Shown here in pieces: positions 2,388 through 63,859 of a stretch of 64,000 bases of DNA; position 1 is the first letter of the stretch, and each line of letters begins with the position of its first letter. The notes beneath the pieces are model-generated. The model saw only the letters and a program-made list of their open reading frames with translations. It was not told where the DNA came from and ran no database searches. A program made the translations under genes and the position numbers. This DNA is from a virus (taxonomy: Duplodnaviria > Heunggongvirae > Uroviricota > Caudoviricetes): IMG/VR virus record IMGVR_UViG_3300015214_000024, positions 9,787-73,786 of that record. One strand, 5' to 3'.

Positions 2388-2978
2388 ATGGCTACTGCAA
2401 TTGAAAAGCTTCAGAATGTTATCGCCAAGGTCGGTGATGTCGACAACGCCGGCGAGATGATCGCACAGGGCATCAAGGCTCGCAAGAAGGCGGACCTGAA
2501 GGTGTTGGGCTTCACTGCAATGTCGGCGACGGTGGCAACGGACGAAGGCGACACGCTTCGCATCGTGTCCAAGCGTGATGCGGCTGATGCTCAGTTCCAG
2601 GGCTTTACGAAGCGCAAGACGTCCGTTATGTTACCCAAGACCGAGACGGTGGCGGACCTGGATGGTTTCCGGATCGACAAGATCGAGCAGCTGGTGCCGC
2701 TGAAGACTGTCATCGGCGACGACAATGATGCATTCAACAGCTGGCTGGCTCGCTATGCAGGTGCTCGTTCGACGGGCAAGGCAACTCGCGGCGCTCGCGA
2801 TGAAGCTGCTCCGGCATCCGTTCAGAACATCGTCCACGTCGGCAACCTGCGCGGTCTGGTCAACAAGATGGTCCAGTTCAATGCCGGCGCAATGGCGATG
2901 ACGTTCGATCGCTTCTCGGTCCGCGAGAACCAGGACGGCACGAAGCAGATCGTGATTACCGATCCCTTCAACGCCTGA
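2388..2978 (+). CDS. hypothetical protein (196 aa), strong RBS, GC-rich codon usage
   Basis: AAGGAGAT RBS; clean ORF; 9-bp hairpin GGGAGTCAA/TTGACTCCC downstream (2985-3030). Confidence 0.7.
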   Translation: MATAIEKLQNVIAKVGDVDNAGEMIAQGIKARKKADLKVLGFTAMSATVATDEGDTLRIVSKRDAADAQFQGFTKRKTSVMLPKTETVADLDGFRIDKIEQLVPLKTVIGDDNDAFNSWLARYAGARSTGKATRGARDEAAPASVQNIVHVGNLRGLVNKMVQFNAGAMAMTFDRFSVRENQDGTKQIVITDPFNA

Positions 2979-3052
2979 AACAAAATGGGAGTCAATGAAA
3001 TAAAGTAGTTGACTCCCATTCATCCAGGCCATAGAAGACGAATATCAAATGG

Positions 3053-3173
3053 GCCCGCGTAGCACAAGCGGCTAGTGCGCTCTTAGACTTTACCCGAGGT
3101 AGGCCACCGAGGGGCTTGGATAGGCCATCCAATGCGTCTGAGTGAGATTCCAGTTCGAATCTGGACGCGGGCA
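3053..3173 (+). ncRNA. tRNA-like RNA (121 nt): 7-bp acceptor stem, D-arm, T-arm with TTCGAAT loop, but 47-nt insertion in place of anticodon loop
   Basis: GCCCGCG...CGCGGGC acceptor pairing; GCAC/GTGC D-stem with GG loop; TCCAG-TTCGAAT-CTGGA T-arm; 9-bp extended anticodon-like helix 3080-3088/3136-3144. Confidence 0.45.
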
Positions 3174-3332
3174 GCAGTATAGAAGGCCGAAAGGCAGAAG
3201 TAAAACGAGGCGACTGAGCGCGCCTATCCACGGGACGGACGACTACGCGCGGTAGGTAATCAGCCCTTGGAGGACTATACTGGCACCCATATCCGTGGAT
3301 GGGCTTCCACGGAAGCACGTGGATGGAGAACA

Positions 3333-3554
3333 ATGGCGAAGCGATCATTTTGGCAGCCAACTGGTGGCGGCTACAATGTGTTCTATGCGGAATACAGATC
3401 CCGCGAGGATCCTACAATCAAACTGTGGAAACGATGCTCCTCCGGCAAGGAACGTGAGGAGTTCATTCGTGAGCAAAGCTTGATCATTCGGCGGTTTGAG
3501 ACTGAGAAAGAGTATCTGGATTTCTACAACTTTCTGTCGACATTAGTGGCATAG
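3333..3554 (+). CDS. hypothetical protein (73 aa), TAG stop
   Basis: internal ATG with GGAG-like RBS; preceded by TCCGTGGA hairpin; ends in rare TAG. Confidence 0.45.
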   Translation: MAKRSFWQPTGGGYNVFYAEYRSREDPTIKLWKRCSSGKEREEFIREQSLIIRRFETEKEYLDFYNFLSTLVA

Positions 3555-3583
3555 CCTGCTAGTACGATTCAAAGGAGATTCAT

Positions 3584-3934
3584 ATGCAGGTTGAAACTAA
3601 ATTCATCGCCAAGGATGGCAAGAAGTTCGACACTCAGCCTGAAGCTGAAGCCTACGAGGCTGAGCTGGATCGGAAAGCTGATGAGCGCTATACCAAATAT
3701 CTGACCAGCTCTGCTGGCAAGCGGCTGCTCCAGGACCACAGTTCCACGGAAGAGGGTTATTGGCACGCCATTGGAGAGAGCGACGATCCTGGGATTGGCG
3801 GTGGACGAGGACCTGACCTTGGAATCTACAAGGGCCGGCTCGTTGATGTTATTCGCAAGGTAACGGCTATGAATGCCTTCTGGTCCTGGGGTGGCGGTGG
3901 CTACATTACCAAGGTCAATGTGACCGAACTCTAA
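3584..3934 (+). CDS. hypothetical protein (116 aa), Gly-rich C-terminus
   Basis: AAGGAG RBS. Confidence 0.65.
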   Translation: MQVETKFIAKDGKKFDTQPEAEAYEAELDRKADERYTKYLTSSAGKRLLQDHSSTEEGYWHAIGESDDPGIGGGRGPDLGIYKGRLVDVIRKVTAMNAFWSWGGGGYITKVNVTEL

Positions 3935-3993
3935 ATTGACAAAATGTAAACTGAATGTTACCATTCGGTTGAATACTTTTGGAGATTTCAGAG

Positions 3994-4158
3994 ATGGAAA
4001 CTAAGGTTGTCAAGCCTTTTACTAGTTCAGAGCTAGAACGAATCAAGAAGCTTGCGAACGAATACCGACCCTCAATGGATAAAACAGTTGTCCACGCTTG
4101 GGGCGAAGACGTTGCTAAGCTTCTTAGAAGCTATCTCACGCGCATTGGAGAGCAGTGA
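3994..4158 (+). CDS. hypothetical small protein (54 aa)
   Basis: GGAG 9 nt upstream; TGATG coupling to next ORF. Confidence 0.4.
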   Translation: METKVVKPFTSSELERIKKLANEYRPSMDKTVVHAWGEDVAKLLRSYLTRIGEQ

Positions 4159-4346
4159 TGTTCAACGTGTATCCTTGCGAGCTAACGTACACTAGAACTA
4201 CGAAGACGGGCATTCTAGCAGGCATTCCGTGCCCTTGCATTATCGGTGTCGCGTCCAAGAAGGACGGTGAGAAACTGTTTGCTGATTTGGTCAAGAACAA
4301 TCCAGACATCTCATTTACAAATCCAAAGATCAATGAGCGAAAATAA
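4158..4346 (+). CDS. hypothetical protein (62 aa)
   Basis: ATG overlapping upstream TGA. Confidence 0.5.
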   Translation: MFNVYPCELTYTRTTKTGILAGIPCPCIIGVASKKDGEKLFADLVKNNPDISFTNPKINERK

Positions 4347-4348
4347 TT

Positions 4349-4394
4349 CTTGACCTAATTCCAGATCCTGCTAAAAGGGTCTGGTAACAAGGAG
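4349..4394 (+). promoter_or_regulatory. promoter/leader cassette copy B (TTGACC-N16-TGcTAAAAG + GGTCTGGTAACAAGGAG)
   Basis: near-identical to copy A. Confidence 0.45.
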
Positions 4395-4400
4395 AAAGAA

Positions 4401-4718
4401 ATGTCTCGCACTCATCGCCGGCATCATCCTAAGACCACCAAGTGGGCTCGACGCGAAGTCGAAGGTTACACGTTCTGTGGTTGCCGCTATGCTTTCGAGG
4501 ATAACAGCGATATGAGCCAGCGCCACACGCTCAGCATCCTGCGCGGTGATGATGGCCGTATCCGCTACGACAAGTGCGCTGGTGCTGTCTCGGACAACGA
4601 GGGTAACTGGAAGCTCAACACTTGGGACGAGTCCCCTAGCAAGCACAATGATGCCCACCGTCACCGCCGCCGCGCTGACAAGAAGCTCATTCGCAGCCAG
4701 CTCAAAGATATGGATTGA
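4401..4718 (+). CDS. hypothetical basic His/Arg-rich protein (105 aa)
   Basis: conserved leader + RBS. Confidence 0.6.
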   Translation: MSRTHRRHHPKTTKWARREVEGYTFCGCRYAFEDNSDMSQRHTLSILRGDDGRIRYDKCAGAVSDNEGNWKLNTWDESPSKHNDAHRHRRRADKKLIRSQLKDMD

Positions 4719-4751
4719 CAACCCGTGTGTAAGAACGTAATCAAGAACACG

Positions 4752-5492
4752 ATGGCCCGTCTGCCCTGGGAGAAGAAGGCAGAGTTCAATATCCGGCTCA
4801 CGCTAGTGCGGGCTGCTAAGCGGCAGCGGCTCTGGGTAGAGCAAGATGGCAAATGTCACTACTGCGATCAAGAAACAGTATTGCCCAGGCCAGGACAAAA
4901 CAACCGTGGCGGCAATCTGGCAACGTTAGACCACATCATTACACAGAGCAATGGTGGGACTGATAGCCTCAACAATCTGGTCGTCGCCTGCCATACTTGC
5001 AACAGCAACCGCCTTGATATGGATTATGAAATTTTTTATAATCTAATGAAGACTCCTGGTGCTTGGAAAGAACATTGTGCTGAAATGGCCCGGCAGAAAG
5101 CGGCTCGTGATGAAGAACGTCGCAAAGCAAACCTTCGCCGTCACGAAGAACTCCTGGCAATGGAAAAAGCTGCCGCATCTGCTCGCCAAATGGAACGGCT
5201 CCGCAAACACGCTCCGAATGTGATCAAATTTGCTCAGCGTGAGGGTTTTATTCTTCCTACTGATCCTGAAGAGCGTATCCAATGGGCTATCAATTATCAT
5301 CTTGAACAAGCTCGGCTCCACAAAATGTTCGGTCCTAATGGTGACAACCTTTTGAAGGATTGGCTCCATCGATCAAACTTCGCACCACGGAAGGATGGCC
5401 GTGGATGGGTAGCTATCCAGGAATGCTCTTCCAGGGACCCTCTTCCGTGGAGGGACTTGACTGGAGAGACGGAATTCTATATTATGAATTAA
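4752..5492 (+). CDS. HNH homing endonuclease
   Basis: CHYCD...LDHIITQSNGGTDSLNNLVVACHTCNSNR HNH motif; ends 3 nt before tRNA. Confidence 0.7.
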   Translation: MARLPWEKKAEFNIRLTLVRAAKRQRLWVEQDGKCHYCDQETVLPRPGQNNRGGNLATLDHIITQSNGGTDSLNNLVVACHTCNSNRLDMDYEIFYNLMKTPGAWKEHCAEMARQKAARDEERRKANLRRHEELLAMEKAAASARQMERLRKHAPNVIKFAQREGFILPTDPEERIQWAINYHLEQARLHKMFGPNGDNLLKDWLHRSNFAPRKDGRGWVAIQECSSRDPLPWRDLTGETEFYIMN

Positions 5493-5494
5493 TC

Positions 5495-5572
5495 GCAGGC
5501 GTAGTGCTCAGTGGCAGAGCCGGGGTCTCTAAAACCCGTCGGTCGTGGGTTCGATGCCCACCGCTTGCACCA
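5495..5572 (+). tRNA. tRNA with anticodon CUA (candidate amber suppressor), CCA encoded; atypical 4-nt spacer between acceptor and D stems
   Basis: acceptor GCAGGCG/CGCTTGC (one G-U), D-arm GCTC-AGTGGCA-GAGC, anticodon loop CUCUAAA, T-arm GTGGG-TTCGATG-CCCAC, A73-CCA, then T5. Confidence 0.5.
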
Positions 5573-5587
5573 TTTTTAGGAGGTTGA

Positions 5588-5821
5588 ATGGTTGACATTA
5601 AAATCGTTTTTGACCGAAAACTAGACATTGTTGAGCTAGAAGTCTTAGCGGCGAAATTTCGGTCTGGAATGTCAACCCATACTTCTTATAAAAAAAAGCC
5701 ATATGTATCTGGTTTAGCCAACACTGCGGTTATTTCAATACCCAAAAAGCATCTTTATAGTGTTATTAACTATCTTCTTACTTTCCCTGAAATCAAATAT
5801 GCGGATCCAATGTATGACTGA
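5588..5821 (+). CDS. hypothetical protein (77 aa)
   Basis: AGGAGG RBS. Confidence 0.6.
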   Translation: MVDIKIVFDRKLDIVELEVLAAKFRSGMSTHTSYKKKPYVSGLANTAVISIPKKHLYSVINYLLTFPEIKYADPMYD

Positions 5822-8314: not shown

Positions 8315-8592
8315 TGTTCAAATGGGTTGAGGGTCGACAGAACAGTGGCTATTTCAAAATGCTTCTGTTTCGATCCAAACTGCTCAAAATGGATATGTAC
8401 CTTCTCAAATTTGAAGAAGGGGTCGTAGTGCCTTGGCATAAGGACCCTGCCAAAACTGGTCAACATTTTCGTTTCAATTTATATCTCACTCGTCCTGGTG
8501 GTGGCGAGCTTCTAATAGAAAAAAATAAGAAGGCTATTTTTCCAATCGACTTTGTCACCTGTTTCGTGCAGATGATATTCAACACGCAATGA
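8314..8592 (+). CDS. hypothetical protein (92 aa)
   Basis: TAATG coupling. Confidence 0.5.
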   Translation: MFKWVEGRQNSGYFKMLLFRSKLLKMDMYLLKFEEGVVVPWHKDPAKTGQHFRFNLYLTRPGGGELLIEKNKKAIFPIDFVTCFVQMIFNTQ

Positions 8593-8644
8593 CGCAGGTA
8601 GAAGGTGGAACCCTCTATATGCTCTCTATCGGGAAGGTTATATA

Positions 8645-9004
8645 ATGTTTGGCATCATGTTTTTGATCGGTCTTTTTCTGTGTCTAGTTCTATTTGTGTG
8701 CTATACATTTTATGACGGATCAGTATGGCAAGCATCGCGCAACCCGGACAAATATACAGTCATCGACGTCCGAACTGCCAAGACTCCAGTCAAGCATGGA
8801 GTTGCCGTTGTGCAATATGATGCTTGGGGTGACCCATATGTCGACTTTGGTATTTCTGGCAGTTACCCACTCACTGGTACTTTGAAGGTGCTAGAGAACG
8901 GTAAGATCCAGGAGCTGTACCACAACACTGAATGGCGTTTGCGTTCTGGTCCAGAGATCATTTGGCCGAACAATTCTGGCCGCAAAGCATTTGATGGATT
9001 TTAA
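8645..9004 (+). CDS. hypothetical membrane-anchored protein (119 aa)
   Basis: N-terminal TM helix. Confidence 0.55.
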   Translation: MFGIMFLIGLFLCLVLFVCYTFYDGSVWQASRNPDKYTVIDVRTAKTPVKHGVAVVQYDAWGDPYVDFGISGSYPLTGTLKVLENGKIQELYHNTEWRLRSGPEIIWPNNSGRKAFDGF

Positions 9005-9983: not shown

Positions 9984-10029
9984 TTGACTCTTATGCCATT
10001 TCCTGTAAAAGGGACTGGTAACAAGGAGG
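9984..10029 (+). promoter_or_regulatory. promoter/leader cassette copy C (TTGACT-N16-TGtAAAAG + GGACTGGTAACAAGGAGG)
   Basis: same architecture as A/B. Confidence 0.45.
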
Positions 10030-10031
10030 CA

Positions 10032-10688
10032 ATGATGCGTTACGGAAATCTTCCCACTGATCTCGGCCTAGTGGATATCTCTCCCAAGGAGATGATGTTC
10101 CATATGTATATGCCAATCAGTCTTCCAGGATCGGATCAAGTATATCTTCCTGAGCACCTCGAAGTGTTCAAGCCCCTCGTTGTCAAGGCGTGGGAAGATG
10201 AGCGCGAACGTTTCCGCGAAGAATATGTTTACCTGACTGCCAAGACCCTTTGGGTCAGCGGCCAGTATATTGGTAATCGGCCCGGATGGCACTCAGATGG
10301 ATTCGGCACAAACGACCTCAATTATATTTGGGCCGATCGAGCGCCGACTGATTTCCTCCACAGCCGCGAGGGTTTTGAATTTGAAGGTCACAATTGTGAC
10401 CACTTCTACACCTTGTGCGATATTATGGAAGAAGATACGTGGCGGCGGGACTGTGGTCGATCCTGGAGTATCAAGCAGTTTGCTGACAAGCATTTGCTCA
10501 AGTTGGATCCGAGCGTGATCCATCGTAGCCCAGTCGACTTTGAAGATGGAATGCGTTCCTTCGCCAAGGTCAGTATCTCTCCTGACCAGTATAATCTGGA
10601 GGGTAATGCCAGCAATTACCTTTTGGATCTTGACTGGAAGATGAAACCGCGTAATGTAGATCGCAATCATCCCAACAAAAGAGACTGA
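10032..10688 (+). CDS. hypothetical protein with HxD...H motif (possible cupin/2OG-oxygenase-like)
   Basis: GWHSDG and downstream His; assignment tentative. Confidence 0.55.
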   Translation: MMRYGNLPTDLGLVDISPKEMMFHMYMPISLPGSDQVYLPEHLEVFKPLVVKAWEDERERFREEYVYLTAKTLWVSGQYIGNRPGWHSDGFGTNDLNYIWADRAPTDFLHSREGFEFEGHNCDHFYTLCDIMEEDTWRRDCGRSWSIKQFADKHLLKLDPSVIHRSPVDFEDGMRSFAKVSISPDQYNLEGNASNYLLDLDWKMKPRNVDRNHPNKRD

Positions 10689-12213: not shown

Positions 12214-12964
12214 AGCGGCTGTTGCCATTGCCCTCTTGTGTGTTTCCACTTCTGCTATTGCCAAGAGCAGGGAGTTTTCCGATATGGAACGACTTGCCAG
12301 ACGTGGTGATATGGATGCTGAATATCGAATTGGTCTTGCATATAGGACTGGGACTGATGATGTCAGGGTGAATCCTGAAAGAGCATTGGATTGGATCCGT
12401 AGAGCAGCCCAACAGGGCCATCCAGGTGCTATTGCATTGTACGGGCTAATGCTCTATGAAGGCGATATGAAGGAACAGTCAGAGTACTGGCTTAAGATGG
12501 CTGCAACCAACGGAGATGCTCGCTCTCAGTATGTGCTCGGGCTCGAATACTGGAATGGCGGCATTGTGGAAAAAGACCCGCAAGCTGCTGTCTATTTTTT
12601 GAAACGAGCAAGTGACCAAGGGCTTGAACCAGCGCAAAAGGCTTATAACGAAGTGATGGAGGTCCTTCACCCAACGCCTGTTATCGAAACCCAAGTGGTG
12701 GAACTTGACGACACGTTGGCTGGGCAAACAACTGGCAATTATTATATCCAGCTAGGCGCTTTTAGCATCAAATCAAATGCCACAACATATTGGGATCAAA
12801 TTAAAGCCCAAATTGCTTTTGGCGATCACGAAATGAGAATTGATGACCAACGGCTTCACTTCTTGAGGGTTTACGGCTATCAAGCAGCTCAAGCCCGGAA
12901 CATTTGCAATCAGATCAAATCGCTTGGCAAAGATTGTTTAGTTAACCGCAATAAAAGCAATTGA
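12200..12964 (+). CDS. secreted Sel1-repeat protein with C-terminal SPOR (peptidoglycan-binding) domain
   Basis: signal peptide; Sel1-like repeats (AEYRIGLAY...GHPGA); SPOR-like YYIQLGAF... Confidence 0.65.
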   Translation: MTKIKAAVAIALLCVSTSAIAKSREFSDMERLARRGDMDAEYRIGLAYRTGTDDVRVNPERALDWIRRAAQQGHPGAIALYGLMLYEGDMKEQSEYWLKMAATNGDARSQYVLGLEYWNGGIVEKDPQAAVYFLKRASDQGLEPAQKAYNEVMEVLHPTPVIETQVVELDDTLAGQTTGNYYIQLGAFSIKSNATTYWDQIKAQIAFGDHEMRIDDQRLHFLRVYGYQAAQARNICNQIKSLGKDCLVNRNKSN

Positions 12965-13244: not shown

Positions 13245-13400
13245 AAACAGCCTCAAATGACGAAGAGGGTCGGTAGAAATGCCGGCCTTTTTTGTGACTA
13301 CGTGATGGATTTGTTAACGTTAATTGATAGGGTTAATGAAAATATCCATTGACTAGACTCCTTATTTTCTTTAATGCTGGCATACAGGAGGAAATTAAGA

Positions 13401-14867: not shown

Positions 14868-15548
14868 ATGACAGAAGTATCCCGCTACCCTCGAACACTA
14901 CACTGGCCAACTAGCCCTGGGGTGCAGTCCGATGACAAGATTCATCGAGACATTGATCGCCTGATCGGGATGCCGGTCACTATCACGGAAAAGATGGACG
15001 GCAGCAACGTAACTCTCTGCAATGGAGAAGTTTATGCTCGTTCCACAGCCGTATCTAGTCAACACGCTTGGCACGGTATGGTGCGAAAGCACCACGCTTG
15101 GAAGACTCAAGAGCTTGGTCCAGACTATAAAATCTGTGGCGAAGATATGTATGCCATCCATTCAATTGAATATGATGGCTTCCGAGAAGATGAGACTTTT
15201 CGAGTCTTTAATATCCTCTACAAAGATACTTGGCTGTCGTTTGCTGATCGAGCTGCTCTTTGCCAACAGCTTGGGCTTATGATGGCCCCTGTTTGGATTA
15301 CTGGGGCCGTGTTCCAGAATCAAAAAGACGTCGACAAATGGTTCGCAAATGTTATGAAGATGGGAAGCAAGCTCGGCCCTGTCAGCGAAGGATTTGTAAT
15401 TCAGATCGAAGACGCCTTTCATAAAGATGATTTTCGAAATTGTGTTGCGAAATACGTTAGGGCTGGCCACGTTCAAACAGATCAACACTGGTCAAGGAAC
15501 TGGAAGCCTTGTAGGCTACTTCGTCCGTCGACGGACTTCCATCCGTGA
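14868..15548 (+). CDS. ATP-dependent RNA ligase-like nucleotidyltransferase (PF09414-type)
   Basis: motif I TEKMDGSN, III GEDMYA, IV EGFVIQ, V KYVRAGH. Confidence 0.6.
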   Translation: MTEVSRYPRTLHWPTSPGVQSDDKIHRDIDRLIGMPVTITEKMDGSNVTLCNGEVYARSTAVSSQHAWHGMVRKHHAWKTQELGPDYKICGEDMYAIHSIEYDGFREDETFRVFNILYKDTWLSFADRAALCQQLGLMMAPVWITGAVFQNQKDVDKWFANVMKMGSKLGPVSEGFVIQIEDAFHKDDFRNCVAKYVRAGHVQTDQHWSRNWKPCRLLRPSTDFHP

Positions 15549-15580
15549 GCTTCCATCCGTGGAAGCTCTTCCACGGAGAC
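15539..15580 (+). promoter_or_regulatory. hairpin/repeat element TCCGTGGAAG-ctc-TTCCACGGA (member of CCACGGA family)
   Basis: perfect inverted repeat just upstream of RBS of 15599 gene. Confidence 0.35.
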
Positions 15581-15598
15581 ACTTGAAAGGAAATGTAG

Positions 15599-15967
15599 AT
15601 GGCATTTTGGGATCGTTCTAAAACCAATCGGCTGAAGAAGCCGAAAGGTGTGAAATTAGCATATATGACTGATCCAAATGTCATCAATAAAACTCGCACT
15701 ACTTTCTACGGCTGTCCTTGGCCAAATCTGGGCGATTATGTGTTTGTCGGTAATAGTCCAAGTGCTGGCACTGTAGGCCGCGTTCGCCGATATGAGACTG
15801 GGTATGAATGCCACGGCGGCCCCGCAATTGAGATTGAAATGCTCTCTGGAGAGATCAAGACTGAATGGGTTTCTTATTCCCTAGTGATTGATTATGCCGC
15901 CGTCCAGGAAGTCAAAGATTTCTACATTGCTGACGGTCGTCCGCAGCGAATTCAAGTGCCTTGGTGA
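15599..15967 (+). CDS. hypothetical protein (122 aa)
   Basis: RBS AAGGAAATG. Confidence 0.55.
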   Translation: MAFWDRSKTNRLKKPKGVKLAYMTDPNVINKTRTTFYGCPWPNLGDYVFVGNSPSAGTVGRVRRYETGYECHGGPAIEIEMLSGEIKTEWVSYSLVIDYAAVQEVKDFYIADGRPQRIQVPW

Positions 15968-16029
15968 TTTTTTCCTGTTGACTGTATAGTCCAAGTGCCG
16001 TATAAGAATACAAATTTTCGGAGGTTTAT

Positions 16030-16689
16030 ATGAGCGTTTTGGACAAGATCAAAGAAGCCAACAAGCAGGGCAAAGTGTATCGTGTAAGTGACCCTTCCGA
16101 ACTGGTTGAACAGCTTCCTGACGGTCGTTCAGTCATCGTTGTCCTTAGCCAGGGCAAGTATGAAGACTCGAATATGAAAACGAGTCGCTATATGGGCCCG
16201 TTCCGCAGCGAACCTGCCGTTTTACTCAAGCCCCTCAAGTATGTTGTCCGCGGCGGCCCAAAGGGTGGCATCACCTCCAAGGGCACGTATCAGGCTGGTG
16301 AAGCAGTGCGTATTATGGGTTGGCCTGGCTTTACGGACAAGACTTGCTGCGATCTCATTACTCTGCTGGGAGACCAAGACCTTCCTAAGGGTGAAGGCGC
16401 CCGCGAGGATCTGTATTCTCGAATCATTTCCTGCAAAGAAGGAACTTACGTTAACCTTCAGGAAGGCGTTGATTTTGAATATACTGGTGCGGCTCCGATC
16501 TCTGCTGCTAAGACGAAAGTCGATGCTATTGCGGTGCGAGATATTGATTACGTGGACGAGATGTTTTGCGATGGTACCATCTATGCAATGACTTCTGTTC
16601 ATCTTTGCACACAGTTCGGCGAAACTTTCCTGGAATACGAAGGAACTCGAATCCTCGACAATCCAGTTGAAGGCGAGGACTACATCTAA
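16030..16689 (+). CDS. hypothetical protein (219 aa)
   Basis: GGAGG RBS; promoter TTGACT-N17-TATAAG upstream. Confidence 0.65.
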   Translation: MSVLDKIKEANKQGKVYRVSDPSELVEQLPDGRSVIVVLSQGKYEDSNMKTSRYMGPFRSEPAVLLKPLKYVVRGGPKGGITSKGTYQAGEAVRIMGWPGFTDKTCCDLITLLGDQDLPKGEGAREDLYSRIISCKEGTYVNLQEGVDFEYTGAAPISAAKTKVDAIAVRDIDYVDEMFCDGTIYAMTSVHLCTQFGETFLEYEGTRILDNPVEGEDYI

Positions 16690-18268: not shown

Positions 18269-18487
18269 ATGACATTTGAGCGTCGATTTAATATGGATCA
18301 CGTTCAGATTGTTGCTGGGGCTGCTCTCAAGAAGCTAGAGGCTGGCGAGCCTCATACTAATGTCGGTGTTGAGTTCATCATTGAGCAGCTACTGGTGGAA
18401 AAAGACTGGGCTGGCTTGGGCCTAGATCCGTATGTGGCTCCTATCAATTACGAAGCCGTTGAGGAACTGAAAAAGTACCTTACTTAA
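18269..18487 (+). CDS. hypothetical protein (72 aa)
   Basis: ORF; 9-bp hairpin CCTGCTCCG/CGGAGCAGG upstream. Confidence 0.45.
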   Translation: MTFERRFNMDHVQIVAGAALKKLEAGEPHTNVGVEFIIEQLLVEKDWAGLGLDPYVAPINYEAVEELKKYLT

Positions 18488-18752
18488 TTTTACCGCCACA
18501 TTCTACAAAGCTGGCTTCAAGTTCAATAACATACTCTTTGAGTTGAGCCAACGATTTTCTCATAACAGTGTTTTGCTCTTCTAAATGCATACCAGTTCGT
18601 GCGCGGTCTAAATCTGTTGATTTTCTTTTAACAGTAACATCACATATTACAACTTGAGCTGTTGGGATTGGTTGCACAACAGGATGACTTTTCGGTGTCG
18701 ATGCACACGCTGCCAGTAAACTAATGACTGGTATGATTATCCATTTTTTCAT
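18480..18752 (-). CDS. lipoprotein (o-spanin-like or exclusion lipoprotein), 90 aa
   Basis: signal peptide with lipobox LLAAC; 4-nt overlap with upstream membrane protein. Confidence 0.55.
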   Translation of the reverse strand: MKKWIIIPVISLLAACASTPKSHPVVQPIPTAQVVICDVTVKRKSTDLDRARTGMHLEEQNTVMRKSLAQLKEYVIELEASFVECGGKIK

Positions 18753-19264
18753 TTATTAGCGCTCCAATCTATGATGAATTGATCATTAATCTGTTCTTCA
18801 GTTTCAACTCGTTGTGCTGGTGTCTTACCACTTGGGGCTGGGCGGCTATATTTTCTAACTAAATGCTGGTAATAAGTCTTTTCTCTGCGTAGCTGGGCTG
18901 CTTCTTGCTTAGATTCAGCTATTTCCTGCTGTAATTGCTGAACCGTTACATTGACTACTTTTACTTTACCAGGAAGCCTAACAGTGCGTTCTTTAACTTT
19001 ATAAGTTTCGATAACTTTAGCTTGTTCCTGGATGATTTTAGTCTTTTCCTGGATAATGTATCTTGTTTCAACCAATGTACCAATAGTAACTACCCAAACA
19101 CAGCAAAGAACTACGGCTAAAGTCATAAGGAATGCTTCTGCTTCTGAAGCTGGTGTTTTAATTATTCGCTTTCGGGCCCATTGCCAGATAGCTTTCAAAA
19201 ATTTCCCCACCATTCGAAATGGAAAAAGTAAAGCTGATAAAACCTTTTTAAAATTTATTTTCAT
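18749..19264 (-). CDS. membrane protein with N-terminal TM and long coiled coil (i-spanin-like), 171 aa
   Basis: GAGGA RBS; TM + coiled coil; paired with lipoprotein. Confidence 0.55.
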   Translation of the reverse strand: MKINFKKVLSALLFPFRMVGKFLKAIWQWARKRIIKTPASEAEAFLMTLAVVLCCVWVVTIGTLVETRYIIQEKTKIIQEQAKVIETYKVKERTVRLPGKVKVVNVTVQQLQQEIAESKQEAAQLRREKTYYQHLVRKYSRPAPSGKTPAQRVETEEQINDQFIIDWSANK

Positions 19265-19349
19265 AAATTTTCCTCGCCTTTCGCGTATTTATTTCATTTG
19301 ACTGGCTGACGCACTTATGCTATTGGTTCAATATACACAAGGAGACAAT

Positions 19350-46160: not shown

Positions 46161-46244
46161 TTATTATATAGCACGTCTGAAGGAAATATTTCAACCTTGT
46201 TAACGTTATTTTGTAGGGTTAACGAAAAAAAATGAAAAAAGTCA

Positions 46245-51447: not shown

Positions 51448-51572
51448 TGATCATCCATCTGTTAACTTTACTAATTAACGTTAACAAAAATCAGAAGGTT
51501 TTTTCGTCGCAAAAACAAATTAGGATTGACTCTGCTTCGAATTAGCTTATAACTCTTGAACAAGGAGATTTT

Positions 51573-53041: not shown

Positions 53042-55354
53042 ATGAAGATTGAAGAAGCAGGCGTTGAGACTTTCTCGCTTGGTCAGAAGGAAGTTTCCGT
53101 TGCCAAGATCCAAGCAAGTGCCAAAGCGTTTGAGATCCTGAGCTCAAGCCTTTATTCCAACAACATTCTCGCAATCATCCGTGAGCTTTCTGCAAATGCG
53201 AAGGACTCGCACAAGGCTGCTGGCTGCCCTGAGAAGCCGTTTGACATTCAGCTGCCCAATAAGCTGGACCCTAGCTTCAAGGTTCGTGACTACGGTGTAG
53301 GTATGGATCATCAATTCGTGATGACTCGCCTGAACACTTACTTCGATTCTACCAAGAACGACAGTAATGAAGAAATCGGCGGCTTCGGTCTCGGCATCAA
53401 GTCAGGCTTCAGCTATACTTCCAGCTATATGATCGTCACATTCGACGGCACGACACGCCGTGTCTACGCTTTCCAGATCGGCGCCAGCGGACTTCCTGAG
53501 ATCAGCTTCCTGGCTGAAACTCCGTCGACTGAGCCTCGCGGTGTTGAGCTCAGCATTCCGGTTATGGACAAGGACTATGACCGCTTCCGCGAAGAAGCTA
53601 TCGAAGCTCTGACGTTCTACGAACCCAAGCCCAACATCAGCGGCGTTGATGCTTCCGCGTTCGACATTAAGCCTTTGTTCCAAGGCACTGGCTGGAAGAT
53701 TTACCAGAATCCTGGCCGCCTCAAGAATGAAAACTATGTCGAGATGGGCAATGTGATCTATCCGGTCATTGAAGAAAACAATCCTTACGACGAATCTCGC
53801 CACTACCGCCACCATCGCCGCGGCCGCGGCGCAGATATGATTATGGTCTATAGCGCCGGCATTGGTGAGATTGACATCACTCCGAACCGCGAGCAGATCA
53901 AGCTGACCGATCGATCCAAGGCCCGAATCACCAAGTTTGAAGAAACGGTAACTGAAGAATTGATGGCCACTATCCAAGGCTGGCTGGATAAGGAAACTGG
54001 TACGCTTTGGGAAGTCCTGCGCGGCGATACGGTGCGCCGTATCCACGACCAGTCCTACTTCTTCGAGAGCCGCAAGGTTGATCTGAAGAAGCTCAAGTAT
54101 AAGGGCTATCAGATTATGGTCGGCGAGTTCCGTTATACTGAAAAGAGCCCGGCTGCTGACAAGGTGGTAAAAGGTCACACCTTGCAAGAGCAGTATGGCG
54201 AGATTCGTATGGATGAGCATCGGATGGCTCATTATGGCATCCAAATCTCAGCCCGGCATTCGGAAAGCGTTGGTATCATTATTGGCACTCCTGGTTGGAC
54301 GGCGAAACTGAACCAAGCCGGCGCTCGTAAGTTGATCAATCAGACAAAGAAGGTGCTTTATCTGCTCGACGTCAAGGCTGCTGATCAGGCCGATGTTATT
54401 GCCGGTCTCAATAAAACCTTCCCGGACTTTGCTGATAACATTTACAATTGGGATGATTTCAAAGCTGGGATCAAGGCAGCCAAGCCGGAAAATGACTACT
54501 ATACTTATGACCTGAAGGATGGTAACTCACGTTATTATAATGAAGGTAATAAGAAGGAGTTCAATATCAAGGACTTCAGCAAGAAGAAGACCATTTATTA
54601 TGGCACGTATAAGCCTAAGGCAAATAACCTTAGGAATTACCATTACAACCGCGAGTCGACGCGAATTCAGGAAATCTTGAGTAGCTGTTATGACGAGACC
54701 TATGATGAGATCCTGGCCAAGCTGAACGGCGAGAAGGTTGTATATGCTTTCCTTGAATCCCAGGTCAAGGAACTGGAAGCTGCAGGATTCAAGCTGGTGG
54801 ACTTTGTTACCACTTTCGAAGAACTGCTCCATCAGGTCGCCGTTGAATTTGCTGCTGAACGTCCTACAATGACGCTGAAGGAATACCTGAAGCCGTTGCA
54901 GGAAAAGAACCCTGAGATTAGCATCTCCACGTTCTACAAGGCAGTGAAGCGTTGGGCCCGCGAATGCGGTATGGAGGACGAGTATCAGCTTCTCCTCAAG
55001 CTGAACGACCCGTCATCATCCTCTTACCGTGCCTCGGCTAATGACCAGCTGTTCCGCCAGGTTCACAAGATGACCATCAAGGAATATGTGAAGAAGCACA
55101 ACCTCAAGCCGGCCAAGCCGACCAGTAACCAGTTCGCGATCGACCTCCGTGACAAGGCCCCGCTGCTCAGCTACTTGATCACTCGCTATAGCGTCCCTGA
55201 TGTTATTGATTATGTGAAGAAGGAAGTGGCTGGTATTGTGAAGGCTCCTGCTCCGGCTGCTACCGTGAAGGCTCCGCCAAAGCGTAAGCCTAGGCCGCAA
55301 CCGGTGGTGATTCAGACCATCAACCCGTTGTCGCTTATCCCGACAGCACAGTAA
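53042..55354 (+). CDS. rIIA: rIIA-like protein (GHKL ATPase N-domain), paralog 1 (770 aa)
   Basis: collinear with T4 rIIA: ASAKAFEILSSSLYSN, IRELSANAKDS (N-box), VRDYGVGM (G1), IGGFGLGIKS (G2). Confidence 0.8.
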   Translation: MKIEEAGVETFSLGQKEVSVAKIQASAKAFEILSSSLYSNNILAIIRELSANAKDSHKAAGCPEKPFDIQLPNKLDPSFKVRDYGVGMDHQFVMTRLNTYFDSTKNDSNEEIGGFGLGIKSGFSYTSSYMIVTFDGTTRRVYAFQIGASGLPEISFLAETPSTEPRGVELSIPVMDKDYDRFREEAIEALTFYEPKPNISGVDASAFDIKPLFQGTGWKIYQNPGRLKNENYVEMGNVIYPVIEENNPYDESRHYRHHRRGRGADMIMVYSAGIGEIDITPNREQIKLTDRSKARITKFEETVTEELMATIQGWLDKETGTLWEVLRGDTVRRIHDQSYFFESRKVDLKKLKYKGYQIMVGEFRYTEKSPAADKVVKGHTLQEQYGEIRMDEHRMAHYGIQISARHSESVGIIIGTPGWTAKLNQAGARKLINQTKKVLYLLDVKAADQADVIAGLNKTFPDFADNIYNWDDFKAGIKAAKPENDYYTYDLKDGNSRYYNEGNKKEFNIKDFSKKKTIYYGTYKPKANNLRNYHYNRESTRIQEILSSCYDETYDEILAKLNGEKVVYAFLESQVKELEAAGFKLVDFVTTFEELLHQVAVEFAAERPTMTLKEYLKPLQEKNPEISISTFYKAVKRWARECGMEDEYQLLLKLNDPSSSSYRASANDQLFRQVHKMTIKEYVKKHNLKPAKPTSNQFAIDLRDKAPLLSYLITRYSVPDVIDYVKKEVAGIVKAPAPAATVKAPPKRKPRPQPVVIQTINPLSLIPTAQ

Positions 55355-55433: not shown

Positions 55434-57608
55434 ATGAAGATTGAAGAGCAGAAGGTTCCCACGTTCAATGTTGGACGCAAGGAAACGGCAGTTGCCTCGA
55501 TCCAGGCCAGTGCGAAGGCTTTTGAAATCCTTAGCTCGGGCCTCTACAGCGATGCTGAGTTTGCCATCGTGCGCGAGATTGCTGCTAACGCTTGGGATAG
55601 CCACAAGGCTGCTGGTTGCCCCGAGAAGCCCTTCAAAGTGCAGGTCCCTAACGGACTTGATCCTCGTTTCTGTGTCCGCGACTACGGCACAAGTATGTCA
55701 CACGAGTTTATGATGACTCGGGTTAACCGCTATTTCGATTCTACGAAGGCGGAAAACAACGACGAAATTGGCGGCTTTGGACTTGGCATCAAGAGTGTGT
55801 TCAGCTATGCCTCCAGCTTTATGATTTCCTGCTATATGGACAGCGTCCGCCGCGTTTATGTTTACCAGATTGGCGAAAGTGGCCTGCCTGAGATCAGCTT
55901 GATGGCTGAGACTGAGACTGACGAGCCAAATGGCGTGGAAGTCAGCATTCCGGTCAAGAGCGAAGACTATCAGAAGTTTTCAATCGCTATCCAGAAAACG
56001 TTTGCCTTTTATAAGGTCAAGCCTGAAATTGCTGGCGTGGAACTGGCCATTCCGGAATTTGACAAGCTTCTGGAAGCTGACGACTGGTTCGTTTGCCGTT
56101 GTCAGAGCATTTTCAATAAGGCTTCTTATATCGAGATGGGCGGCATTGCTTATCCGCTGGACGAACAGCTGACTGGCCTGCGTTCCTATTACAGTAACCA
56201 CCACACTCTGTTCATCAAGGCAGAGATTGGCGATGTTGATATCACTCCGAACCGTGAACAGATCAAGATGACTGAGCGCACTCGCAGATTTGTCAAGGAC
56301 AAGTTGAAGACCATTAACGACCAGGCTGAGAGCATTATCCAGGATCTGATCGATGCCCAAGGCCACACGTATTATTGGGACTTCATTGCTGAAGTGGTCA
56401 AGTATGATATTGATCTGCTCCGCAGCATCGGCTTCTCCAAATCCAAGATCACGTTCAATGGAAAGAAGTTTGACGACAATACGTTCACTATCCGTATTGC
56501 TCCCAAGCCGGCTCCTGAAGATCCAATGGATCCTAATTCGCCGATCAAGCAGCCTACCCTTACGCCGGAAATGGTCGAAGGCATCACCCGCTTTGGTGAA
56601 TGGTCACTGCACGATAGTGGTCGAGTTAAGAAGGATGAAGATCGCTGGAGTTATCAGAATGCTTGGAATTTTGATCGCTTCAACAAGCCGCGTCCGATTG
56701 TGGTCGCTGACGAAGCTTCAGTTCGTCGTATTGCCCCTTGGATGCGTTACAGCGATACTGACAAGATCATCCTGGTCAAAGTCGAGCCCGGTAAGATCAC
56801 TGATGTGATGGCCGCAATCAAGGAGCGTCTTCAGGACTTCAACAACATCCACGATGCTTCCACCGTGCATTTCGAGAAGGCACCGAGGGCTGCGGCTGCT
56901 GAGCGCAAGTATTATATGTACCACACCAGCACTTGGAATGAAGTTGTCCGCAAGGAAATGGATCTCGGTTCACTACCTAATGAGATCTACTATTTCCAGA
57001 CCGATGGCCGCCAGCGTAGTGAAGTGTTTGGCCGCACTACGGACTTTAACAAGGATGCGTCATTCATTGCAGTGGCTAGGACTTGGATCCCGAATGTTAG
57101 CTTTTACTTCCTCACAGAAGCAATGATCAAGAAGATTGAAAAGGCCAATCCTTCGGCAGTTTTGATCGAAACATCTGCCAAGCTGGCTGAAATGCTTGAC
57201 GACAAGGTTCGTGAAGCTGGGCAGAATTATGTTTCCCGCAGCCTTGAGGATATCAAGGCACCATTTGCTCGCTCGGGCGGCAGCTGGCGGACAGCATCTG
57301 CTCTTGACTTTTGGGCCAAAGAGTTCAATTTGTCCGATTATGAACAGGCAAAGAAGGATCTCGAAACCCACAAGCCGGATAGCAGCCTTGAGAAGATGTG
57401 CAAGCTGATCAAAGGCAAGACCATCTTCGAAATGTTCACAGAGCTTGGTGTCAATACGCGCAACGTCACTGTACCGAGCTTTGATAATATGCTGGCAAAG
57501 ATGCCTTATGTCTTTGCAATGGTTGATGACTATTCCGAGGAAGAAGTTGTGAACCATATTGGCGAAACGATGGGCTGGAAAAGAAACACCCAGCCTGTCA
57601 CAATTTGA
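55434..57608 (+). CDS. rIIA: rIIA-like protein, paralog 2 (724 aa)
   Basis: same GHKL motifs; similarity to paralog 1 is strongest in the N-terminal region that was compared. Confidence 0.8.
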   Translation: MKIEEQKVPTFNVGRKETAVASIQASAKAFEILSSGLYSDAEFAIVREIAANAWDSHKAAGCPEKPFKVQVPNGLDPRFCVRDYGTSMSHEFMMTRVNRYFDSTKAENNDEIGGFGLGIKSVFSYASSFMISCYMDSVRRVYVYQIGESGLPEISLMAETETDEPNGVEVSIPVKSEDYQKFSIAIQKTFAFYKVKPEIAGVELAIPEFDKLLEADDWFVCRCQSIFNKASYIEMGGIAYPLDEQLTGLRSYYSNHHTLFIKAEIGDVDITPNREQIKMTERTRRFVKDKLKTINDQAESIIQDLIDAQGHTYYWDFIAEVVKYDIDLLRSIGFSKSKITFNGKKFDDNTFTIRIAPKPAPEDPMDPNSPIKQPTLTPEMVEGITRFGEWSLHDSGRVKKDEDRWSYQNAWNFDRFNKPRPIVVADEASVRRIAPWMRYSDTDKIILVKVEPGKITDVMAAIKERLQDFNNIHDASTVHFEKAPRAAAAERKYYMYHTSTWNEVVRKEMDLGSLPNEIYYFQTDGRQRSEVFGRTTDFNKDASFIAVARTWIPNVSFYFLTEAMIKKIEKANPSAVLIETSAKLAEMLDDKVREAGQNYVSRSLEDIKAPFARSGGSWRTASALDFWAKEFNLSDYEQAKKDLETHKPDSSLEKMCKLIKGKTIFEMFTELGVNTRNVTVPSFDNMLAKMPYVFAMVDDYSEEEVVNHIGETMGWKRNTQPVTI

Positions 57609-59921: not shown

Positions 59922-60383
59922 ATGTGTTATTCGTCGCAATATCAAATGGAGGTTGAATTGGCTACTAGCTTGGTTGATGATTATGTTTTGAACTCGCGGG
60001 TGTATCGCGATGTTAAGGCTGACATCAAACTCCAAGATGACAGTAGCCGACTCTGTTACGATGCTGAAGGCATCATCTGGGCAACAGAGCAGATCGACTC
60101 AGACATTTATTGTCCGCTCCAAGCTCTGCAGATCGACAAGGGCATTATGTATAGTGATGCTGAGGTGGATGATTCCACATATATGGCAGAACTGATGGTC
60201 AACCTAGCCACTCTTTGTGGGGGCAATTTTGCACAAGATACCTTGTGCCAATATATGTTTGATTCTGAAATGCGTGTTTGCCAAATGCGAGTAGCTGAGT
60301 CATATAAACATTTCTTTGACAAAGTATCAGATCGCAGTACAGTGTTTCCTGAGGTAGAAAGCTATCTAAAGGTGATGTCGTGA
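59922..60383 (+). CDS. hypothetical acidic protein (153 aa)
   Basis: ORF. Confidence 0.45.
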   Translation: MCYSSQYQMEVELATSLVDDYVLNSRVYRDVKADIKLQDDSSRLCYDAEGIIWATEQIDSDIYCPLQALQIDKGIMYSDAEVDDSTYMAELMVNLATLCGGNFAQDTLCQYMFDSEMRVCQMRVAESYKHFFDKVSDRSTVFPEVESYLKVMS

Positions 60384-62291: not shown

Positions 62292-62294
62292 TTT

Positions 62295-62615: not shown

Positions 62616-62968
62616 TGACTTGTAATTAATTAATTATTTTCGGCCAGCGAAGCTCTGGCCCACTTCCTGCTTGGGATGTTGAAAAGGAAAGCCCCAGAAG
62701 AACGAATGTCCTCTGGGGCTCCTTAGCAAGGAGGTTGTCACACTTGACGCTATCATTTTTCCTTAAAAGGTAATGTTTAGCTATGACTCCTACAATATAT
62801 GGCAACCTTTGAAGTCTGTCAAATAGATTTTCACCTTTTATTATTTTGAAAATAAAGAATAAAGTCGCCACCAGTCTGACTTAATTTTCGTCGCAAAAAC
62901 AAATCTACATTTAAATCAGTCAATACAGTCATTGACACACAAATCATTTTCCTATATAGGAAGCTGTA

Positions 62969-63205
62969 ATGATTGGTGTATTTTTATATGAATGGTTGAC
63001 TGATATGATTAGAAAAAGTGATGCTGAGAAAATTATAAGAAAAGTGTCTTTAAACTCAGCTCGGTCTTCAGGACGCAAAATCAATACTTGGGTTTCCAAT
63101 ATAATTAATAATGCCAGCTGGCCGCCCACGGAGGCGGGCTCCTCCACGGAAGGGCCTCCACGGATGGACACGTCTCCACGGAAGAGCCTCAATGGAGACG
63201 TATGA
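62969..63205 (+). CDS. hypothetical protein (78 aa); C-terminal part coincides with CCACGGA direct repeats
   Basis: GGAAG RBS; promoter TTGACA-N17-TATAGG. Confidence 0.35.
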   Translation: MIGVFLYEWLTDMIRKSDAEKIIRKVSLNSARSSGRKINTWVSNIINNASWPPTEAGSSTEGPPRMDTSPRKSLNGDV

Positions 63206-63611
63206 ACCCATATTCACCCAAGTTGATGTAGCTGGGGAGGTTATAGATTGCCCCCAGACAGAACACGAATGGCTCTACCCAGATGAGTATGTGGGAAAGA
63301 ACATAATTTGGTTTATGGCCCATCACATTTGTTTAAACGATTTTGTCAGCACGGAAACGATTAACCGTTTTTTCCGAGTAGAAGGAAGTTGGAAACTTTT
63401 AAGTCAGATTCTTTCAATGGCCAATGGTCACGAATATCTTAATATAATTGACAATGCAAGAGAACACGTGACTGATTTGGATTTGCAGGAGCCATTGATT
63501 AGGATTATACTGGACAAACACAATTCAGGTTTGTACGAAGTATTTGTCAAAATGACAAAAAACCCATATTTAAAAACCGCTCGCCACAACATATGGAATT
63601 TCTTGAAATGA
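63192..63611 (+). CDS. hypothetical protein (139 aa)
   Basis: GGAAGAG RBS; 4x CCACGGA repeats immediately upstream. Confidence 0.5.
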   Translation: METYEPIFTQVDVAGEVIDCPQTEHEWLYPDEYVGKNIIWFMAHHICLNDFVSTETINRFFRVEGSWKLLSQILSMANGHEYLNIIDNAREHVTDLDLQEPLIRIILDKHNSGLYEVFVKMTKNPYLKTARHNIWNFLK

Positions 63612-63859
63612 ATGAGGAAGATGCAAACAAAATACTTTTCTACAATGGTTTCACGTGGGAATTTAATAAAGAATATCCGTCCACAATCAGTCTTCAGACG
63701 GTAATGGAATTGACTGATCCAAACATACAGGAAGGTATTGTCCACATTCTAAAGGCAAGTTTTAATGAGCCCAGAATAATTGAAAAATTTATTGACCAAC
63801 TTTCTCCCACGGAAGAACTAAAACAACTGAGGATGACTATATGGCAAATGATTCGCTAG
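63608..63859 (+). CDS. hypothetical protein (83 aa), TAG stop
   Basis: coupled; rare TAG terminator. Confidence 0.45.
   Translation: MNEEDANKILFYNGFTWEFNKEYPSTISLQTVMELTDPNIQEGIVHILKASFNEPRIIEKFIDQLSPTEELKQLRMTIWQMIR

Follow-up and report, generated by a model that had tools for sequence, protein, structure and literature searches.

Phased arrays of a short dyad box recur at gene junctions in the early region of a T4-like jumbo phage lineage: a candidate dispersed cis-regulatory cassette

The DNA analysed here (the window) is a 64,000-nt stretch of a phage genome that matches part of a 465,559-bp metagenomic contig (ENA ERZ27247376 k141_1276970) at 99.99% identity, window position w being contig position 208746-w on the reverse strand. 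We worked with an 80-kb sequence consisting of the window together with ~6.4 kb upstream and ~9.9 kb downstream taken from that contig. The window contains two rIIA genes in tandem, rIIB, three RNA-ligase genes, an HNH endonuclease gene and numerous small ORFans. No near match for 40 kb of the window was found among GenBank phages, where the best rIIA matches are 28-37% identical. The gene content, the size of the contig and the lack of a close GenBank relative together indicate that the window is the early region of a T4-like jumbo phage.

An earlier note on this DNA had described a family of inverted and direct repeats upstream of three unrelated genes. On re-reading of the sequence all of these repeats were present, and the proteins encoded by the three downstream genes have no similarity to one another. 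Overlooked in that first reading were an array at 5384-5451, an array at 1749-1784 of the near-identical contig L049, and the strict 14/18-nt register of the repeats. In total there are four arrays in the window, beginning at 3292, 5384, 15542 and 63125 (referred to here as sites 1, T, 2 and 3), and a fifth (site 0) upstream of it. All five lie in plus-strand blocks of small ORFs near rIIA/rIIB, 9-45 nt before the start of a gene, and the genes downstream of them have no Pfam or PHROG function (Table 1).

Table 1. Positions of the arrays, related boxes and adjoining genes (window coordinates except for site 0)
Feature	Position	Strand	Details
Site 0 array	L049 1749-1784		4.6 kb upstream of window; three boxes
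Degenerate box	3227..3234	+	TCCACGGG; compared with the L222 array at 8698/8712
Site 1 array	3292..3313	+	TCCGTGGA (3292-3299)-tgggct-TCCACGGA (3306-3313); 14-nt register
Site 1 box-like remnant	3316..3328	+	CACGTGGATGGAG; GGAG at 3325-3328 is the SD of ATG 3333
Gene p73	3333..3554	+	73 aa; no known family; downstream of site 1
Single box	3743..3750	+	Inside p116 coding sequence, codes S-T-E
Site T array	5384..5451	+	5384 ACCACGGA; 5398 GCCGTGGA; 5416 and 5430 degenerate; 5444 TCCGTGGA
Promoter-like TTGACT-17-TATTAT	5457..5485	+	Between array T and tRNA; consensus scan only
tRNA gene	5495..5572	+	Anticodon CUA (amber-suppressor type); downstream of array T; L222 counterpart 12495-12570
Site 2 array	15542..15577	+	TCCGTGAG (15542, degenerate), TCCGTGGA (15556), TCCACGGA (15570); register 14/14
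Site 2 tail	15578..15585	+	GACACTTG; matches the GGAACAC-TTG tail (spacer and start codon) of the site 0 cassette
Gene p122	15599..15967	+	No known family; downstream of site 2
Small ORF p78	62969..63205	+	3' third is the site 3 array; 14-nt overlap with p139 start
Site 3 array	63125..63196	+	Boxes at 63125, 63143, 63157, 63175, 63189; register 18, 14, 18, 14
Gene p139	63192..63611	+	No known family; downstream of site 3
Single box	63806..63813	+	CCCACGGA; inside p88 coding sequence (P-T-E), kept as coding in relatives

The repeat unit is an 8-nt dyad box, TCC-RY-GGA, which is asymmetric at its two central bases only and takes the 8-mer form TCCACGGA or TCCGTGGA in the window lineage, where extended dyads such as GCTTCC-RY-GGAAGC are also present. 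An array consists of two to five boxes with a start-to-start register of strictly 14 or 18 nt, and a cassette copy measures 25-75 bp. The surroundings of the box are not symmetric between the strands, i.e. a G is found at +5 in nearly all boxes and the mirror C at -5 in about two thirds. Every array is in the sense orientation with the purine flank stronger than the pyrimidine flank, and the 14-nt register brings the GGAGG of each box to roughly the distance of an SD from the centre of the box that follows. Sites 0, 1, 2 and 3 also have in common a tail, (A)CAC(G/T)T(G/C), which at site 0 is the spacer and start codon. This shared tail suggests that the copies descended from one cassette.

Nine pairs of boxes are spaced at exactly 14 or 18 nt, whereas 200 simulations averaged 0.08 such pairs and never gave more than 1, which excludes chance as the source of the arrays. 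The 7-mer occurs 15 times (5.6 +/- 2.2 expected), a count reached in 0 of 100 shuffles, and the 10-mer with one mismatch or fewer occurs 12 times (3.7 expected). The arrays are located at gene junctions, and single boxes within ORFs (3743, 63806, 48457, 2163 and 43221) were no more frequent than expected by chance. The boxes in p116 and in p88 are probably both coincidental. A relaxed scan of the same 80 kb returned these arrays again and no further ones.

The nearness of the arrays to start codons also held, the arrays of sites 1, 2 and 3 ending 19, 21 and 9 nt before ATG 3333, 15599 and 63192, respectively. At site 1 the span first given, 3290-3322, covers the array, but the hairpin placed at 3296-3318 was off by ~4-5 nt (Table 1); its two boxes give an 8-bp stem with a 6-nt loop. 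The GGAG of the remnant that follows lies 4 nt before the conserved ATG of p73, a start that is confirmed by a homologue of the same length in L222, a diverged relative, beginning at ATG 9486, and in L222 the equivalent of the remnant, CACACGGATGGAG-gcgt-ATG, is found in the same place. Site T has spacings of 14, 18, 14 and 14 nt; it lies at the 3' end of the HNH ORF (4725-5492), in a tail that is poorly conserved, and ends 44 nt before the tRNA(CUA) gene. At site 2 the degenerate first box includes the RNA-ligase stop codon TGA (15546-15548), CCATCCGTG occurs at 15539 and 15553, and TCCGTGGAAGCTCTTCCACGGA occurs at 15556-15577. Two hairpins are possible at this site, which are mutually exclusive.

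At site 3 the first four boxes are all CCACGG-centred (CCACGGA at 63126, 63144, 63158 and 63176), and the fifth, TCAATGGA (63189-63196), is degenerate and includes the start codon of p139. The array as it stands in the window resembles a 32-nt tandem duplication. ATG 63192 is the true start of p139, as five of its seven homologues are 139 aa long, the length of the ORF from this ATG; the equivalents of p78 have been called in relatives as a gene of 66-78 aa. The last box of site 0 reads TCCACGGAGG-aacac-TTG in the window lineage, where a gene of 63 aa begins at this TTG and the start is conserved, and TCCACGGAGG-aacat-ATG in L222, where the ATG starts a different, extra gene of 50 aa. The resulting placement (GGAGG-N5-TTG and GGAGG-N5-ATG) in both lineages identifies the purine half of this box as the SD. 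The purine half of a last box (GGAGG/GGAAG) thus serves as, or abuts, an SD, and the start codon can lie within the last box.

Arrays occupy the same positions in diverged relatives, whose neighbouring proteins have 63-87% amino-acid identity and whose flanking genes are 55-75% identical at the DNA level. The site 3 array is kept in L205, L207, L212, L218 and L219-221 (the contigs of the seven p139 homologues, which are 63-87% identical), and its conservation was counted over six lineages. Mean pairwise identity is 0.77-0.89 in the array versus 0.555 in the body of p78, and conservation at codon position 3 is 0.845 within the array versus 0.465 in the p78 body and 0.534 in p139, i.e. third codon positions are the most conserved ones inside the array. 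The constraint at site 3 is therefore on the nucleic acid and not on the protein. In these relatives the ATG forms the centre of the fifth box (CCC-ATG-GAG), and across relatives the CTCCA half of the box is as invariant as the GGA half.

In L222, which has a p116 homologue 68% identical to that of the window and is syntenic with the window from -5.6 kb to +15 kb, arrays in the 14-nt register occupy the places of sites 0 and 1 and of the tRNA site. The site 1 array (9441/9455) has two TCCATGGA boxes, the counterpart of site T (12438-12490) abuts the tRNA, and an additional array follows a tRNA-like gene. The near-identical contigs L003, L004, L049, L050 and L052 show no variation. The presence of site 2 in L005 was rejected as a sign of selection, as it lies in a mosaic block that is identical over 15399-16058. 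No arrays were found in distant relatives reached via the RNA ligase (33-50% identity, L054-L084) or in one reached via p122 (39%, L001), so the element is lineage-specific. An IMG/VR search with rIIB as query and scans of JGI metagenomes found nothing, IMG/VR scans for inverted and direct box pairs gave only unrelated hairpins, terminators and coding tandem repeats in approximately chance number, and a literature search with the motif string returned only primers. We are highly confident that the arrays are a real, conserved feature that is functional in some cis-acting way.

Comparison of the boxes between lineages is informative about which of their positions matter. The boxes of L207, L212 and L218 are mostly TCCATGGA, a perfect palindrome, and, as read from these sequences, the ancestral box would be this same palindrome. 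The window lineage has no CCATGG (22.9 expected) and has been almost cleared of CATG, with 3 copies in the 80 kb versus 297 expected (3 versus about 247 for the window). This avoidance is graded from lineage to lineage, the observed and expected CATG counts being 55 and 68 in L207, 73 and 68 in L212, 15 and 12.6 in L218, 12 and 74 in L222, and 2 and 63 in L205. Box centres account for 4 of the 12 surviving CATG sites in L222 and for 1 of the 2 in L205, which indicates that the boxes resisted the genome-wide purge. Where boxes were purged, a single transition at one of the two central positions gave CCACGG or CCGTGG. The window boxes are therefore one-transition derivatives of the palindrome, and the two apparent "orientations" of the motif in the window are a result of the purge.

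As only the central positions changed under this pressure, the TCC and GGA halves are the indispensable part of the box. In the fifth box of site 3, which holds a real start codon, it was the C before the ATG that was lost (CCCATGG to TCAATGG or TCTATGG), which argues that the ATG matters in this box and not in the others. At site 1 the AUG x AUG pairing of L222 is replaced in the window by GUG x ACG. Here an A-U pair has given way to G-C, by which both CATG sites are gone and the helix is kept. At window site 3 all four boxes have become ACG, so that the centre of any helix between boxes has two A.C mismatches and pairing is left to the CUCCA/UGGAG cores.

Adjacent boxes are predicted to form helices of 8-10 bp, with stems at sites 0, 1, 2 and T (z down to -3.5) and partial box helices only at window site 3. 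The site 0 folds have energies of -21.4 and -20.9 kcal/mol in the two lineages (z = -3.5 and -3.1), and the minimum-energy pairing is of box 1 with box 2 in one lineage and of box 1 with box 3 in L222, where it buries the SD. Site T folds at -37.8 kcal/mol (z = -2.3). Other folds in the window have weak z-scores (-0.5, -1.75 and -1.4). A second dispersed family that combines a hairpin with an SD, at 22, 4361 and 9995, suggests that this genome makes habitual use of such cassettes. A terminator scan reported none of the arrays, and with no T-run or U-tract after any hairpin there is no canonical intrinsic terminator among them. With Rfam 15 only two tRNAs in the window pass the gathering threshold, and at E up to 1 over positions 2950-5650 nothing was found at the arrays there; for sites 2 and 3 the search was made at the gathering threshold. 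The DnaA box, sigma-54 promoter, MotA-type middle promoter, integron attC and Chi site were considered from the sequence as identities for the motif and rejected, as their defining bases or spacing do not fit.

It had been proposed in the earlier note that the repeats are a translational operator or riboregulator that sequesters the RBS region, or a binding site for a phage regulator. What stands of the translational proposal is that there is a conserved family of cis-elements on initiation regions; a general RBS-sequestering riboregulator is not supported. In favour of a role at initiation regions are the SD within the last box of site 0, the GGAAGRG of box 4 of site 3 located 7-8 nt before the ATG, and the burial of the start codon in the helices predicted for two site 3 relatives (z = -2.7 and -4.6). 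However, the main hairpin of sites 1 and 2 in the window does not include their SD and AUG, the window site 3 boxes all have the same orientation and so have no centre-to-centre pairing, a tRNA gene, for which there is no RBS, follows one of the arrays, and two copies lie within a promoter-like TTGACA-17-TAnnnN frame. Covariation in the site 3 helices was also no better than in shuffled controls (225/500), and the RNAalifold covariation term for the site was ~0.

The alternative is that the boxes are read as DNA. By consensus match, site 0 contains TTGACA-17-TATCCA, conserved in two lineages, and site T of L222 contains TTGACA-17-TACCGT (-10 = TACCGT) within the arrangement TTGACA-N4-box-N6-box-N6-box. 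A sigma-70-like -35 element is found only at these sites and at window site T, where the promoter-like site comes after the array and not on it; the consensus scan gave no convincing promoter at sites 1, 2 or 3. The arrays could then be operators for a dimeric, sequence-specific DNA-binding regulator, with one dimer per TCC-NN-GGA box, and arrays over promoters and the starts of genes would turn a small regulon, made up of early ORFans and the suppressor tRNA, on or off, in a manner that might be likened to MetJ boxes or the heptad arrays of the omega repressor. Such a regulator would explain why the box is an exact palindrome in the lineages without CATG avoidance, why the CTCCA and GGA halves are invariant and the central two positions drift independently from box to box, and why arrays that are unable to form box-to-box hairpins, as at window site 3, are still conserved. 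The geometry TTGACA-N4/5-box-N6-box-N6-box, seen at site 0 of both lineages and at L222 site T, places box 1 within the spacer, has the -10 covered by box 2 and leaves box 3 just downstream, and before a tRNA gene only transcriptional control makes sense.

This explanation is the main rival to the one we prefer, although we consider it rather unlikely, and several observations speak against it. The 14-bp centre-to-centre register does not amount to whole turns of the helix, a promoter can be recognised at only a minority of the arrays, and array T of the window is upstream of its promoter-like site. The strand asymmetry of the box flanks, the uniform sense orientation of the arrays and the presence of SD-like purine halves at SD distance from start codons also count against it, and Pfam and PHROG searches of the ~20 neighbouring ORFs found no regulator and no DNA-binding (HTH/RHH-type) domain. 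MetJ met-boxes, the omega repressor heptads of pSM19035 and the Arc/Mnt operators are short operator boxes bound cooperatively by small repressors. The present arrays are like these in being tandem boxes (7-8 bp, 2-10 per site, direct or inverted, over promoters of several unlinked genes in those systems), but the boxes of those systems are contiguous at 7-8 bp spacing, in contrast to the 14 or 18 bp seen here, and most arrays here are on ribosome-binding regions and not on promoters.

A further possibility is a trans-acting factor that binds or cleaves the mRNA at the boxes, e.g. a CsrA/RsmA-type protein, a RegA-like repressor or a RegB-like endoribonuclease, for which the arrays would shut off, or titrate, the translation of selected early genes. 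CsrA/RsmA-type proteins bind several A(N)GGA motifs located 10-60 nt apart, one of them on the SD, and a spacing of 14-18 nt is within the range reported for dual-site binding by CsrA; RegA and RegB are regulators of T4 early genes, and a RegB-like endoribonuclease cuts GGAG in early-gene SDs. Every box has A(C/U)GGA(A/G/U)G on the sense strand, with ACGGA, AUGGA or GUGGA in each, there are five to six GGA motifs within ~75 nt at site 3, the last motif overlaps the SD or the start codon, the box spacing of 14-18 nt would suit CsrA, and the phage is itself T4-like. The resemblance to CsrA/RsmA leaders and to sponges of the CsrB/RsmZ type therefore lies in the series of GGA motifs ~14-18 nt apart with the last on the SD. 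On the other hand, a factor reading GGA only does not explain why CTCCA is equally invariant, GGA is predicted in stems rather than in loops, a search of the 80 kb and of loci from the relatives found no CsrA homologue, and a tRNA gene is what follows one of the arrays. The sites of T4 RegA are, in addition, AU-rich. We consider an mRNA-binding factor of this kind improbable.

In a broader form, which we also regard as unlikely, the boxes would be the operator code of a novel sequence-specific regulator, either a protein or a ribonucleoprotein, that governs a scattered regulon of early ORFans and an amber-suppressor-type tRNA in a co-ordinated way. If this were true, one and the same element would, through the placement of GGAGG by the 14-nt register, be readable both on DNA, through promoter occlusion, and on mRNA, through ribosome access, and the CATG purge would serve as a natural mutagenesis series for the indispensable positions of the box.

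The arrays are associated with exchange of the genes around them. At site 0 the cassette forms an island of 58 bp with 89.7% identity, AATCCTTGACA...GGAGGAACA, comprising the TTGACA, the boxes and the SD; the genes upstream of it have no similarity between the two lineages and the gene downstream is different. The cassette can thus have unrelated genes as its flanks. A 230-aa gene that is bracketed by two arrays in L222 is absent from the window, which has one array and the remnant at 3227, and this remnant is probably what is left of the second array, the one that precedes the 230-aa gene in L222 (8698/8712). Such events could be taken to mean that the arrays are selfish or structural repeats with no regulatory role, i.e. 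recombination joints, slippage duplications of the start region, or chance. The cassette-level gene replacements that adjoin arrays, the duplication-like layout of window site 3 and the occurrence of other indels between relatives without arrays count in favour of this. We nevertheless judge it very improbable, since position, register and box halves are kept while the flanking genes diverge as described above, the boxes are among the last CATG survivors of a strong genome-wide purge, and the phased pairs are far too many for chance.

The explanation that we prefer, with a probability of roughly 0.45, is that the arrays are a portable stem-loop/RBS cassette, sometimes with a promoter, that gates expression of the downstream gene and is similar to the PeSL elements of T4-type phages. 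The repeats would be copies of one dispersed cis-regulatory cassette in a lineage of T4-like jumbo phages, each array being placed where two genes meet, immediately 5' of an early ORFan or, in one case, of a suppressor-type tRNA gene. In the mechanism we infer, the pyrimidine half of one box (CUCC/CUUCC, which is anti-SD-like) pairs in the mRNA with the purine half of another, and the alternative stem-loops formed just upstream of, or across, the SD and AUG would gate initiation at the downstream cistron. At site 3 this gating would tie p139 to the translation of p78, which overlaps it. As one array serves a tRNA gene, the gating of translation cannot be the sole role. The stem-loops may in addition shield or punctuate polycistronic early transcripts; where TTGACA lies upstream, the stem-loop would occupy the spacer and -10 region of a sigma-70-type promoter; and the conserved repeats may double as joints for the exchange of gene cassettes.

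[quoted passage not shown] 2010, PMC2839356; Comeau et al. 2014, PMC4122927). The original work used reporter assays to show that the PeSL stem-loop terminates transcription and that the promoter is active, and recombination between PeSL copies yields mini-circles. The arrays resemble them as repeated, lineage-specific intergenic motifs of plastic early regions that lie immediately upstream of ORFans, as stem-loops that in some copies lie in a promoter-like frame (site 0 and L222 site T read TTGACA-17-TA(T/C)CC(A/G...)), and as motifs that are kept while the flanking genes are replaced, inserted or deleted. They differ in that a PeSL is one G-run/C-run stem-loop whereas an array is a phased series of 2-5 short dyad boxes with a 14/18-nt register, in that the present cassette includes the SD and sometimes the start codon, and in that a recognisable sigma-70 promoter is found at only some copies. 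Copies are also rare here (~5 in 80 kb).

The proposed gating at site 3 also has parallels in phage translational coupling. Initiation-region hairpins and coupling are familiar from the coat and replicase genes of MS2 and from T4 early genes with overlapping stop and start codons, and at site 3 the AUG is 11 nt before the upstream stop and is predicted to lie in a helix, so that a ribosome finishing the upstream ORF would open the helix around the AUG. Unlike in those systems, where one helix suffices, there are five phased boxes at site 3, and the boxes recur where there is no overlapping upstream ORF and before a tRNA gene. Likewise, the conservation of both box halves, the predicted pairing of GGA and the lack of a nearby CsrA gene set the arrays apart from CsrA/RsmA targets.

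The early regions of giant T4-like phages hold many ORFans, and some of those in this genome are marked by a compact, conserved control element with a precise grammar, i.e. a box, a register and an embedded SD or start codon. The set marked in this way is small and consists of early genes and a suppressor-type tRNA gene. The loss of CATG shows how a restriction-avoidance sweep can reshape a regulatory motif without destroying it. If the PeSL-like reading is right, the idea of the mobile regulatory cassette would be extended from T4-like phages of 170-250 kb to a phage of 465 kb.

Comparison of the window with the relative L005 revealed that a block of 660 bp (15399-16058), which takes in both the CCACGGA array at 15542-15577 and the whole of the gene downstream of it, p122, is identical in the two phages but for one base. 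The L005 genes flanking this block are ~6% different from those of the window, mostly at third codon positions, and because the block is near-identical while its flanks differ to this extent, the comparison indicates that a segment the size of a gene was recently exchanged by recombination. Cassette-level indels were also seen, i.e. two minus-strand genes (18480-19264) are missing from L005 (indel region 18477-19339), and L222, a diverged relative, carries two additional small genes between its homologues of p62 and p105 (L222 10774-11331). The junctions of these indels lack a CCACGGA array.

Other repeat families are dispersed in the window (see table). Copies of the GTTAACGTTAAC-type family occur in both direct and inverted orientation, at least five of them packed into the large non-coding stretch 62291-62968, and this family could represent the promoters or operators of a different expression class. 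The second cassette consists of a hairpin (CCAGAyyCTGCTAAAAGGrTCTGG), followed by TAACAAGGAG and then a start codon; stem differences between its copies are G.U-compatible.

Coordinates of tRNA-like genes, repeat families and the rII block.
Feature	Window	L222	Remarks
tRNA-like gene, Arg (GCG)	3053-3173 (+)	~8515-8645	ARAGORN, introns allowed; kept in the diverged relative
tRNA, anticodon CUA	5495-5572 (+)	12495-12570	Amber-suppressor type; ARAGORN label Pyl; conserved in the relative
GTTAACGTTAAC-type repeats	1597-1647, 13311-13342, 46197-46228, 51459-51490, 62300-62565		Intergenic
Second dispersed cassette	22-61, 4361-4400, 9995-10034	4358-4396, 4737-4776	
Third repeat, TTTTTCGTCGCAAAAACAAAT...	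51500-51536, 59927-59963, 62884-62920		Three copies
rIIA paralogue 1	53042-55354		First in order
rIIA paralogue 2	55434-57608		Second in order
rIIB	57664-59184		Third in order

The tRNA-like Arg (GCG) gene was missed by standard tRNA scans and by Rfam scans, and its anticodon loop holds a 48-nt insertion. The L222 copy keeps the insertion too, and the changes in its T-stem are compensatory. Since three RNA ligases are among the proteins encoded by the phage, protein-dependent splicing or repair of this putative tRNA is a lead. For the CUA tRNA, the Rfam search gave no match to the tRNA family and only a weak tRNA-Sec match under the gathering score; this tRNA may allow TAG read-through or recoding.

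Both tandem rIIA paralogues match one and the same PHROG over their full length, and the rIIA-rIIA-rIIB order is also kept in the relatives L205, L207 and L213.

The protein P0008, identical to that encoded at window 3584-3934, is present in NCBI under the title 'MAG: hypothetical protein M0R77_12925 [Gammaproteobacteria bacterium]'. It follows that at least part of this phage's genome has ended up in a bacterial MAG, which could reflect mis-binning or else give a clue to the host.

CATG occurs only three times in the whole window (8656, 8795 and 30758) against ~247 expected, and the count is still three, against 297 expected, in the 80-kb sequence obtained by extending the window at both ends from a near-identical contig. 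CCATGG is absent (22.9 expected), and GTGCAC, GTATAC and GCTAGC likewise have no copies, with 6-8 of each expected. The strength of the avoidance is graded among relatives: counts against expectation were 2 vs 63 in L205 and 12 vs 74 in L222, and showed no avoidance in L207, L212 and L218. Judged from these counts, the near-absence of CATG is a very strong signature of restriction avoidance.
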